Notes: a model not told the origin generated them from the sequence alone. A stretch of DNA of 60,035 nucleotides, filler included, from 4 parts of 4 records of this genome joined end to end with filler, not necessarily neighbours in it, one strand, 5' to 3'. Shown: positions 29,319-31,406, counted from the first letter of the whole stretch. A program made the numbers and translations.

Positions 29319-29795
29319 TTAATTGGCAATTAGTAGTTTTTGTAATCGGTAATTTTCAAAGTAATCCTTCAACTGATTGCGTATTTGGATAGATTTGTAC
29401 ACATCTTCACCATTTGAACTTACAGCAATGCTGATATTTTCCCGCTTGTAAATGGCAGGAGAAACAAATTCACAAAATTCTGGCTGATCGTGCACATTTA
29501 GTAACACGTTGACATCACGACAATCGCGAATTAATTGCTTGACAAATGCAGGATCATCAACGCAACTGTATATTAAATGGTAGTTTTTTAAAAAATCTTT
29601 AAGGTATTGTTGTTCATGATACACAATTCCTGAGTTTTTTATCCAATCGATAATTTTAGGTGCAATAACCTCTATCTGATTGGTGCTTCGTTGTAAGATT
29701 TTAAGTTTTTTGTAGGCATCTTCTCCTCCTCCGATAATTAGAATTTTTTTATCGGTAATATCTATTGCTATAGGTAAAAATTGTTTCTTCGACAT
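29319..29795 (-). CDS. Precorrin-2 dehydrogenase/sirohydrochlorin ferrochelatase (CysG N-domain-like)
   Basis: FLPIAI..ILIIGGG, NVHDQPEFCEFVSPA and IAVSSNG motifs. Confidence 0.88.
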   Translation of the reverse strand: MSKKQFLPIAIDITDKKILIIGGGEDAYKKLKILQRSTNQIEVIAPKIIDWIKNSGIVYHEQQYLKDFLKNYHLIYSCVDDPAFVKQLIRDCRDVNVLLNVHDQPEFCEFVSPAIYKRENISIAVSSNGEDVYKSIQIRNQLKDYFENYRLQKLLIAN

Positions 29796-29806
29796 GATTC
29801 TTCGTT

Positions 29807-30037
29807 TTAAATGTTGTAATCTATGGGGTGTTTTTCTTCCTTCCCGAATTTGATTTTATTCCATGTTCTTTCATGAATAAAATAGAGACCCATTTTGGTA
29901 AACAGCTCCACGCCGCCTATCGACATAGCCCATGTGAGATCTCCTATTACTAGCCATGAAATTAGTACTGTATCTATGGTTCCAATAGTTCTCCACGAAA
30001 TGGTTTTTGCGATACTTCTGTAAGTTTTTTCTTTCAT
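29807..30037 (-). CDS. DUF2061 small membrane protein
   Basis: RSIAKTISWR..GTIDT and YFIHERTW motifs; typical of sulfur assimilation operons. Confidence 0.88.
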   Translation of the reverse strand: MKEKTYRSIAKTISWRTIGTIDTVLISWLVIGDLTWAMSIGGVELFTKMGLYFIHERTWNKIKFGKEEKHPIDYNI

Positions 30038-30054: not shown

Positions 30055-30089
30055 AAAAAAAAGAGCCTTTCTGGTTTGCAGAAAGGCTC
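30055..30089 (-). terminator. Attenuator terminator 2
   Basis: GAGCCTTTCTG-CAAAC-CAGAAAGGCTC-TTTTTTTT, about 18 nt before the DUF2061 start. Confidence 0.88.
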
Positions 30090-30125
30090 GATATGCTTGG
30101 TTTTAATAATGCACAGCGAATTCTG

Positions 30126-30209
30126 CTAGGGTGGAAACCATAACATGCACATACAACAACACGCAAAAATGTTGAATTGGAAACTGATATGTGATTTTTT
30201 GAATTTCAT
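30126..30209 (-). CDS. Cys/Met-rich leader peptide 2 (27 aa)
   Basis: MKFKKSHISFQFNIFACCCMCMLWFPP*, followed by a terminator. Confidence 0.82.
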   Translation of the reverse strand: MKFKKSHISFQFNIFACCCMCMLWFPP

Positions 30210-30248
30210 TATTATTTTAAAGCGGTATATCTGTTGAAATTAATTCAT

Positions 30249-30282
30249 AAAAAAAGCCTTTCTGCGAGTGCAAAAAGGCTTT
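30249..30282 (-). terminator. Attenuator terminator 1
   Basis: AAAGCCTTTTTGC-ACTC-GCAGAAAGGCTTT-TTTT. Confidence 0.88.
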
Positions 30283-30311
30283 GTGCTATTATTTTGATTC
30301 GATTTAATTCA

Positions 30312-30410
30312 TCAAGCATCTCCTTTTTGCAAAACACGATTTTCCATACACATACAACACATTGTACATGCAACAGAAACATTCATTTTACTATTTAGGA
30401 TATTGCTCAT
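30312..30410 (-). CDS. Cys/Met-rich leader peptide 1 (32 aa)
   Basis: MSNILNSKMNVSVACTMCCMCMENRVLQKGDA*. Its 3' end TGCAAAAAGG is complementary to the terminator arm CCTTTTTGCA. Confidence 0.82.
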   Translation of the reverse strand: MSNILNSKMNVSVACTMCCMCMENRVLQKGDA

Positions 30411-31134: not shown

Positions 31135-31406
31135 TATTGATATAATCATTGTAAATGATATTGGAGAAAACGGAAGTTTTCTCCTTTTTTTATGCCATAA
31201 ATTAAGATTGTACAGCAAGTTTATTTATGCTGGAAACATGTGTTCTAAAACAGTTCCAAAAGACCACATTTGTCATGATTTAGAAAAGTGTTTTCATCTA
31301 TTTTTGCAGCGAATTTTTGAGGTGATATTAAATAACAGAACTAAATATATTAATCTGAATTGTAATATTTCCTTACGCAAACAACAACACTTAAATATTC
31401 TAACTG

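Follow-up and report, generated by a model that had tools for sequence, protein, structure and literature searches.

Two serial Cys/Met leader-peptide attenuators proposed upstream of a sulfite reductase operon in Marinifilaceae

Within the stretch of Bacteroidota DNA analyzed here, which is 60,035 nucleotides (nt) in length and is hereafter referred to as the window, a sulfite reductase operon is preceded by a leader that harbors two short upstream open reading frames (uORFs), each containing a run of cysteine (Cys) and methionine (Met) codons and each followed by a canonical terminator. This leader is likely to represent two serial ribosome-mediated transcription attenuators which sense the charging of Cys-tRNA and, probably, of Met-tRNA, an assignment that is based on sequence comparison and predicted RNA folding; the operon would, most likely, be switched on when sulfur amino acids run short. 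An earlier note, produced from the sequence alone, had proposed a serial double attenuator reading both amino acids; the comparative and thermodynamic evidence presented below supports attenuation at both units, while the sensing of Met is only probable. The leader is a real and conserved feature, and the mechanism proposed for it would be a variation on a textbook one, not a system of a novel type.

Organization of the tandem leader

All elements of the leader are carried by the minus strand, in the order promoter, uORF1, terminator 1, uORF2, terminator 2 and the gene encoding a DUF2061 protein, which confirms the arrangement and the positions given in the earlier note. Both units could be aligned across the window and all 14 Marinifilaceae loci (15 sequences, 74% mean column identity), and this alignment, A1, spans the promoter box, both codon runs, both antiterminator strands and both terminators. 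The predicted promoter, located by a box scan, comprises TTG (30483 to 30481), a 20-nt spacer and a -7-like box, TATCCTTG (30460 to 30453), the latter being the sole TAnnnTTG box on the minus strand between positions 30030 and 30560. Bacteroidota promoters follow the consensus TAnnTTTG/TTTG, and a promoter-type box occupies the matching position in 15 of the 15 aligned Marinifilaceae leaders, in support of the promoter-like sequence previously pointed out upstream of uORF1. A sigma-70 scan returned fewer sites than did shuffled sequences, the sigma-70 model not being applicable to Bacteroidota. The presence of a second promoter between the two units was ruled out, as the interval from terminator 1 to uORF2 contains no TAnnTTTG or TAnnnTTG box in any of the 15 sequences; because no conserved box is located there, a single transcript would have to pass both gates. 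The end of the promoter box is separated from the ATG of uORF1 by 42 nt, i.e., uORF1 is not leaderless. Within this interval (30441 to 30426, minus strand; alignment A1, columns 51 to 65), an element consisting of AGATC, 6 to 7 nt and TCC is kept in all 15 Marinifilaceae leaders, and a small AGAC..GTCT hairpin is found at the corresponding position in Prolixibacteraceae-like leaders.

uORF1 (30410 to 30312) consists of 32 codons and a stop codon, specifying MSNILNSKMNVSVACTMCCMCMENRVLQKGDA, and contains the Cys/Met run TGT ACA ATG TGT TGT ATG TGT ATG (30368 to 30345), the core of which, TGTTGTATGTGTATG, is near-invariant in alignment A1; uORF1 orthologs were found in the Marinifilaceae loci. 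Region 2, the predicted antiterminator strand GCAAAAAGG (30330 to 30322), corresponds to Q-K-G codons inside uORF1 and starts 12 nt past the run, with the stop codon situated 18 nt beyond the region 2 start. It is exactly complementary to CCTTTTTGC (30278 to 30270) in the 5′ arm of terminator 1, which bears out the complementarity between a uORF1 segment and this arm that had been described previously. Terminator 1 is formed by a stem of 13 pairs (30282 to 30253) with a 4-nt loop, ACTC, and a U-tract extending to 30249. The unit 1 antiterminator is paired in 98.5% of cells across the 15 sequences, A-to-G changes retaining G-U pairs, and the fold predicted for the stalled-ribosome state, which uses region 2, has a free energy of -15.8 kcal/mol.

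uORF2 (30209 to 30126; 27 codons and a stop codon, specifying MKFKKSHISFQFNIFACCCMCMLWFPP) carries the run TGT TGT TGT ATG TGC ATG (30161 to 30144) and is conserved as ..CCCMCMLW(F/Y/N)PP-stop in 12 of the 15 aligned Marinifilaceae sequences, the exceptions being L074 (..LWNQP-stop), L011 (..MLLKPPW-stop, with no ATG found at the usual uORF2 start) and L012 (..CCCMYMLWNPPW.., without a stop at that place). Antiterminator 2 (30126 to 30078) is predicted to be a composite hairpin, which consists of a conserved inner stem, encoded by CGCTGTGC (30118 to 30111) and GCATATCG (30096 to 30089), and of an outer helix that closes it, formed by GCAGAA (30126 to 30121, its first base being the stop-codon G of uORF2) and TTCTGC (30083 to 30078, within the terminator 2 5′ arm), such that, in the RNA, GCAGAA:UUCUGC encloses CGCUGUGC paired with GCAUAUCG. 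The GCAGAA/TTCTGC match that had been singled out in the earlier note is exact, yet it represents one part of antiterminator 2 rather than the whole. The outer helix is paired in 94.4% of cells and the inner stem in 85%, with one covarying pair (CG 7, UA 5, UG 2), and the fold of the stalled state is predicted at -14.9 kcal/mol. A two-strand duplex measure returned z scores of -0.1 to -2.8 for antiterminator 2, values which underrate this structure because its inner stem is invisible to such a measure. Terminator 2, a stem of 11 pairs (30089 to 30063) with a 5-nt loop, CAAAC, followed by T8 (30062 to 30055), is paired in 100% of cells and includes one compensatory pair (CG 8, UA 7). A candidate pairing between UGGUUU of uORF2 and AAACCA of the terminator 2 loop was rejected, as neither side is conserved in Labilibaculum.

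The reading frame past the uORF2 TAG (30126 to 30103, minus strand; alignment A1) continues as QNSLC and one or two further residues, and a TAA is located seven codons past the stop in 12 of the 15 sequences, the frame of the window and that of L005 being open beyond this point. The stop codon itself varies, as L012 harbors TGG at the position of the TAG, its frame ending at a later TAA, and L011 harbors TGG-TAG. These stop variants, coupled with the open frame after the TAG, suggest that uORF2 once ended further downstream, in a manner similar to uORF1, and later gained an early stop on the antiterminator.

Between positions 29500 and 31500, six terminator-like sites were detected, compared to 0.8 ± 0.8 in shuffled sequences, and both leaders were more stable than all of 200 shuffles (z scores of -4.4 and -3.9). 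When these comparisons are combined with the ribosome-state folds detailed below, alternative antiterminator and terminator structures are predicted at both units, as the earlier note had anticipated. A search against Rfam 15 (E values up to 10) returned 13 weak matches, none of which approached its gathering score and none of which corresponded to an S-adenosylmethionine (SAM) riboswitch or a T-box. Elsewhere in this region, a perfect 9-pair hairpin (GGAGAAAAC..GTTTTCTCC; 31163 to 31184), with a T-run after it on the plus strand, obtained a terminator-like score on both strands.

Conservation, pairing and predicted folding of the leaders

Related loci were retrieved from a species-representative genome collection using the DUF2061 protein as the query, yielding 80 loci. 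The closest of these (86 to 93% protein identity) belong to Marinifilum, Labilibaculum and Ancylomarina, those with 61 to 75% identity belong to Prolixibacteraceae and Draconibacterium-like genomes, and the more distant loci are derived from Flavobacteriia, Cytophagia-like bacteria, Campylobacterota and marine archaea. A leader was defined as an ATG-started ORF of 8 to 70 codons, located no more than 700 nt upstream, in which at least four of seven residues are Cys or Met, including at least two Cys. Such a small ORF is present upstream of the DUF2061 gene in 53 of the 80 loci, in agreement with the expectation that Cys/Met uORFs accompanied by hairpins would recur in related upstream regions, and conservation extends to the uORFs with their frames and runs, as well as to each terminator and its antiterminator complement. 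Two further leader-bearing loci were added, namely L058, which the definition missed, and L049, whose leader lies approximately 1 kb upstream. As a background, 16 of 4281 small ORFs elsewhere in the 80 loci correspond to the same definition, and one of these 16 is the displaced L049 leader. No convincing leader was found in the flavobacterial, archaeal or Campylobacterota loci among the 80.

Outside Marinifilaceae, the leader-bearing loci (approximately 40 Prolixibacteraceae-like loci, with a matching operon downstream) carry a single unit only. On the basis of the loci compared, the tandem form appears to be specific to Marinifilaceae, the single-unit homolog being widespread; the tandem unit would be a duplicate of the single-unit leader of related families, and the duplication appears to be older than the split between Marinifilum, Labilibaculum and Ancylomarina. 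An order-wide model search matched at least 4 of 151 genomes (E ≤ 0.001), a count which says little about distribution because only the best 17 of thousands of candidates were scored per genome. In locus L055 (2240 to 2500, plus strand), the terminator and region 2 are intact and the Cys codons are replaced (..MYISMFMYMRFNCISQKNGRI), this leader being either degenerate or re-tuned.

It could be argued that only one of the units contributes to regulation, the other being a decaying duplicate, an explanation that would accommodate both the drift of the unit 2 stop (TAG in most sequences, TGG-TAG in L011 and a later TAA in L012) and the finding that L011 is without an ATG at the usual uORF2 start. 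However, the run, the antiterminator and the terminator are kept by both units in 15 of 15 sequences representing three genera, compensatory changes are evident in terminator 2, and a second, independent tandem pair is located at another operon (see below); decay of either unit is, in our assessment, highly improbable.

The 37 single-unit leaders share a common architecture, in which region 1, CUUCUGAAA (S-S-E-I codons), is followed by the Cys/Met run (typically MCMCMC, CMMCMCC and similar), region 2, UUCAGAAGG (F-Q-K codons), a stop codon approximately 20 nt further on, region 3, GCCCUUCUG (the nearly invariant terminator 5′ arm), and region 4 with its U-run. In these leaders, the 3:4 helix is paired in 98.8% of cells with compensatory pairs, a result matched by 0 of 500 shuffles, and the 2:3 helix is paired in 79.7% of cells, compared to 38 to 68% when the partner is slid, with one covarying pair (GC 15, AU 10, GU 4; 8 of 500 shuffles match). 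The corresponding values for the 15 tandem leaders are 92.8% for both antiterminators, compared to 35 to 53% when slid, and 96.9% for the two terminators, which likewise contain compensatory pairs and are matched by 0 of 500 shuffles. The 1:2 helix (CUUCUGAAA with UUUCAGAAG) is clear in many Prolixibacteraceae-like leaders and is paired in 83.2% of cells (40 to 61% when slid). A covariance model constructed from the single-unit leaders assigned scores of 61.7 and 50.3 bits to the two units of the window and gave no other match within its 60 kb at an E value below 0.1. This model also detected, elsewhere in related genomes, three further Cys/Met leaders whose terminator arms differ (CCCTTCACG, GTCTTCCGGATA and CCTTTCTGTG), each of which possesses its own complement 3′ of the run; the predicted free energies of these leaders are -17.4, -20.4 and -13.5 kcal/mol in the stalled state and -2.0, -0.5 and -1.9 kcal/mol with the ribosome at the stop codon. 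We regard such matching complements at differing terminators as the strongest covariation-type evidence for the proposed mechanism.

To this may be added a set of ribosome-state folds, for which the RNA left free in each ribosome position was folded for 66 units. This set is exclusive of the alternative-frame ORF of L032, unit 1 of L011 (terminator mismatch), unit 2 of both L005 and L011 (ORF not called by the script, though visible in the alignment), L049 and L058 (the displaced leader and that which failed the first criterion, respectively) and L055 (no Cys codons in the run). For a ribosome whose A site holds the last run codon, pairing of the terminator 5′ arm reaches at least 60% in 65 of the 66 units (-11 to -20 kcal/mol); with the ribosome at the stop codon, 8 of the 66 reach this threshold, and the structures are weak (0 to -6 kcal/mol). 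The full-length minimum-energy fold includes the terminator in 64 of 66 units. Region 2 starts 9 to 16 nt past the run in 64 of 66 units, the remaining two being the units of L012 (22 and 26 nt).

Several features indicate that the leaders are translated. Every detected unit has an ATG-started frame that spans the run, and the two alternative frames remain open across this span in 1 of 66 and 17 of 66 units; the spacing between regions 1 and 2 is a multiple of three in 25 of the 28 units that contain both motifs (lengths of 60 to 78 nt); and variation among Cys codons is synonymous (TGT 237, TGC 34). These features bear on the alternative that the leader is an RNA-level element which functions without translation, a protein or small ligand binding to the UG-rich repeat or to another part of the leader and thereby choosing the fold, with the frames being incidental. 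The UGU/AUG repeat is indeed a low-complexity motif and a possible protein-binding site, and 43 of 66 truncated folds contain the antiterminator even when no ribosome is present. Conversely, a purely RNA-level element would leave unexplained the conserved frames, the three-nucleotide periodicity, the synonymous TGT/TGC changes and the placement of the stop codon such that a terminating ribosome covers region 2; leaders of like design for His and Ile/Leu/Val are present in these genomes, and no Rfam match was obtained. This alternative is consequently deemed very unlikely.

According to the attenuation mechanism proposed here, transcription would start at the single predicted promoter (30483 to 30453), the box of which is conserved, and a ribosome would translate uORF1 as RNA polymerase advances. 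Scarcity of Cys- or Met-tRNA would cause this ribosome to stall in the run (30368 to 30345), leaving region 2 (GCAAAAAGG) free to pair with the 5′ arm of terminator 1, a pairing which is possible, conserved and correctly positioned; the terminator would then fail to form and transcription would read through. Where supply is good, the ribosome would reach the stop codon and cover region 2, upon which the terminator would form and transcription would end. Transcripts that escape terminator 1 would meet a second test at uORF2 and terminator 2, where the stop codon also marks the beginning of region 2, which would close the composite hairpin. Read-through of the whole leader would then be the product of two probabilities, which may be expected to lower basal expression and to render the response steeper.

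A number of points weigh against this proposal. The support for the mechanism consists of comparative and thermodynamic computation, from which we infer the dependence on Cys and Met, a role for the Met codons and any benefit of having two gates, and this evidence does not distinguish the sensing of Cys from that of Met. In the 2:3 helix, covariation is thin owing to the strong conservation of the sequences, amounting to one pair per alignment (8 of 500 and 13 of 500 shuffles match), and related sequences can yield such values without structure. Covariation of the 1:2 helix across the 37 leaders is not above that of shuffles (79 of 500), and this anti-antiterminator is weak in the units of the window (duplex z scores of -0.9 and 0.0). 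A ribosome footprint of +13 nt from the A-site codon was assumed for the folds. Truncated transcripts form the antiterminator without a ribosome in 43 of 66 units, as mentioned above, and, therefore, the untranslated default may be read-through, unlike that of trp. Finally, transcription-translation coupling in these bacteria was not found to be shown in the literature surveyed.

Downstream genes, amino acid specificity and additional leaders

The first structural gene of the operon, which, like those that follow, is located on the minus strand, encodes the DUF2061 small membrane protein (30037 to 29807, with its ATG at 30037; PF09834, E value of 3.9e-21). It is followed by genes specifying a siroheme-synthase-like protein (29795 to 29319; Pfam NAD_binding_7), a CysJ-like flavoprotein (29315 to 27540; Pfam Flavodoxin_1, FAD_binding_1 and NAD_binding_1), a CysI-like hemoprotein (27550 to 25817; Pfam NIR_SIR) and a uroporphyrinogen-III methylase-like protein, CobA (25795 to 24968; Pfam TP_methylase), these Pfam assignments being in support of the gene identities that had been read from the sequence. 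Sulfide, the product of the operon, feeds the synthesis of both Cys and Met.

Cys and Met account for 12.5% and 16.4%, respectively, of the residues of the leader peptides, as opposed to 0.67% and 2.2% in the 24 long ORFs of the window. Since both codon types occur in each unit (MCCMCM in unit 1 and CCCMCM in unit 2), the two serial units would both read the same signal, as opposed to dividing the two amino acids between them. An unlikely, though serious, alternative is that cysteine alone is sensed, the Met codons being a by-product of the ATGTGT repeat, spare internal starts or spacers. The nearest published uORF sensors found read Cys codons alone, the runs of additional Labilibaculum leaders are dominated by Cys (CCCCM and CCMCCCM), and a literature search for leader attenuation at methionine codons, as judged from titles and abstract openings, gave no Met leader. 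Set against this are the approximately 7-fold enrichment of Met in the leader peptides, its interleaving with Cys in nearly every run (MCMCMC, CMMCMCC and CCCMCM), distant lineages included, and the established role of sulfide in the synthesis of Cys and Met alike.

The composition of the peptides also raises the question of whether they are functional in their own right, as Cys-rich small peptides with a metal-binding, redox or precursor role, in which case the hairpins would be ordinary terminators. While the uORF2 tail, LW(F/Y/N)PP, in which the Pro codons differ synonymously at the third position, suggests a degree of constraint on the peptide, the best-conserved codons outside the run are RNA pairing partners (SSEI in region 1 and FQK/QKG in region 2), and length and sequence otherwise vary freely. 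Furthermore, the Pfam-annotated genes of the operon include no modification or export genes, and the position of the uORFs is always directly upstream of sulfur-assimilation genes; a dedicated peptide function is, accordingly, extremely unlikely.

The distribution of additional leaders is consistent with a role in sulfur assimilation. In five related genomes, the pattern TGYTGYATGTGY is matched 27 times, and all six of those that possess an ATG-started short ORF and a terminator precede sulfite reductase operons. Labilibaculum euxinus harbors a second tandem Cys/Met pair (MRKVKLHIVKLKQNNCCCCMYIPIDKG and MKSTIQNIVKNRIDSSNTMMCCICCMCCCMRIILTYPGYYNYDCTMF; near L095/L101), each member with its own terminator, which was detected by the covariance model, as applied to five related genomes, on the minus strand of L105 (G002:C11:149500-158950) and which precedes an operon comprising sir, TP_methylase (cobA), siroheme synthase, 3′-phosphoadenosine 5′-phosphosulfate (PAPS) reductase (cysH) and adenosine 5′-phosphosulfate (APS) kinase (cysC) genes. 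Within this locus (L105:6806-8881, minus strand), the 691-amino-acid NIR_SIR protein carries a C-terminal HEPN match (PF05168, E value of 1.1e-05, residues 584 to 656), an unexpected fusion. In Draconibacterium sediminis, a single Cys/Met leader, MNKSLSIANNIMCMCCCMFSKHVEGDTMR, with a terminator (L086) lies upstream of an OsmC-like gene (L104, G005:C12:177500-185800, minus strand), downstream of which are 4Fe-4S, NrfD, cytochrome c and molybdopterin oxidoreductase genes.

The model, in addition, cross-matches leaders for other amino acids in related genomes (L093, L096, L089 and L090), namely a His leader (MKFIALHHRHHHF.., MKFIALHHRHHHFTYPQVS) upstream of a hisG-like ORF and Ile/Leu/Val leaders (e.g., MKLVSVIILVVVVLLGRSEKG) upstream of ilvD-like ORFs, where the gene names rest on N termini read by eye. 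The final E-K-G codons of these leaders complement the terminator 5′ arm, a geometry shared with the Cys/Met leaders, and leader-peptide attenuation would, therefore, be a general device in these bacteria.

A more elaborate reading combines these observations, although, taken as a whole, it is tentative and rather doubtful. In this reading, the leader would be a two-stage ribosomal sensor with non-equivalent stages, the first being ancestral, with its antiterminator strand inside the ORF, and the second acting as a tighter gate, which would have gained an early stop directly on the antiterminator and a conserved LW(F/Y/N)-Pro-Pro-stop tail, the latter delaying termination and holding the ribosome on the antiterminator. 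By virtue of the interleaved AUG codons, this would be the first leader peptide in nature to sense methionine in addition to cysteine, and the cysJI operon, the sir-cysH-cysC operon and the OsmC-like gene would form a Cys/Met ribosome-directed regulon of Marinilabiliales-like Bacteroidota.

Significance and relation to known systems

The control of sulfate assimilation in Bacteroidota is poorly described, and no regulator of these operons was identified in the literature found. If the proposed mechanism is correct, at least two sulfur-assimilation operons of marine and sediment Bacteroidota would owe their control to a conserved sensor based on the ribosome, ribosome-directed regulons would extend beyond mycobacteria, and Cys plus Met would be added to the few amino acids that leader peptides read. 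This duplicated same-signal pair would also provide a natural test case for the sharpening of a response by serial attenuators, which is of relevance to the design of RNA circuits, and the unannotated small ORFs and premature terminators bear on annotation and on the reading of transcriptomes in these organisms.

The classical attenuators of amino acid operons are represented by trpL, hisL, thrL, ilvL, leuL and pheL of Escherichia coli and Salmonella. The leader of the window shares with these a short upstream ORF, a run of cognate codons and mutually exclusive 2:3 antiterminator and 3:4 terminator structures, between which the position of the ribosome would decide. It differs from them in its Cys and Met codons, its two complete serial units, its weak 1:2 pairing and the formation of the unit 2 antiterminator from the stop codon onwards, in addition to its Bacteroidota host, TAnnTTTG-type promoter and lack of a Shine-Dalgarno sequence. 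Tandem riboswitches and T-boxes likewise place two terminator-based switches for the same signal in series, an arrangement proposed to sharpen the response; while these sense a ligand or uncharged tRNA by RNA binding, the units described here would sense via the translating ribosome.

The literature search found no Bacteroidota Cys/Met leader, no Met-codon leader and no duplicated same-signal pair of leader peptides in the open literature, subscription journals and supplements (e.g., the 5′-region tables of PMC9723704) being outside its scope; this is in line with the statement in the earlier note that no characterized Bacteroidota example was known. The portions consulted of two transcriptome studies, on Flavobacterium and Bacteroides, make general mention of leader-peptide attenuation (PMC9723704 and PMC7366714), and those of PMC2965389 and PMC4833913 contain nothing on Cys or Met leaders.

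A functional parallel is found in mycobacteria, where polycysteine leaderless short ORFs sense cysteine by ribosome pausing, a device shared by several cysteine-metabolism loci (Canestrari et al., 10.1101/834739). That device is translational, as it unmasks the sequestered ribosome-binding site of the next gene, and is polycysteine only, with no Met codons or tandem units described in the parts of that report consulted (10.1101/834739), whereas in the window a canonical terminator follows each uORF, at a distance of at least 67 nt from the next start codon. Another related system is uORFC-8-2 of Rhodobacterales cysS, a Cys-codon uORF with a terminator stem and U run for which ribosome-mediated attenuation was proposed (Brewer et al. 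2021, PMC8632094); this alphaproteobacterial leader precedes a cysteinyl-tRNA synthetase gene and is a single unit with two Cys codons, no Met codons being described in the text available to us (PMC8632094). Candidate Cys leader peptides with Cys-codon runs near the stop have also been reported upstream of cys operons in Actinobacteria (Seliverstov et al. 2005, PMC1262725), for which, according to the sections consulted, conserved terminator hairpins were not found and Rho-dependent termination was suggested, as distinct from the canonical terminators of the window (PMC1262725). With respect to the tandem arrangement, the mgtCBR leader of Salmonella contains two short ORFs whose attenuation-like switches act independently on one operon (Lee and Groisman 2012, PMC3641672). 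As described in the part of that study consulted, the signals to which the two ORFs respond are distinct (ATP and proline-charged tRNA), and neither ORF is a duplicate of the other (PMC3641672), whereas the two units of the window are homologous, contain the same codons and possess their own terminators.

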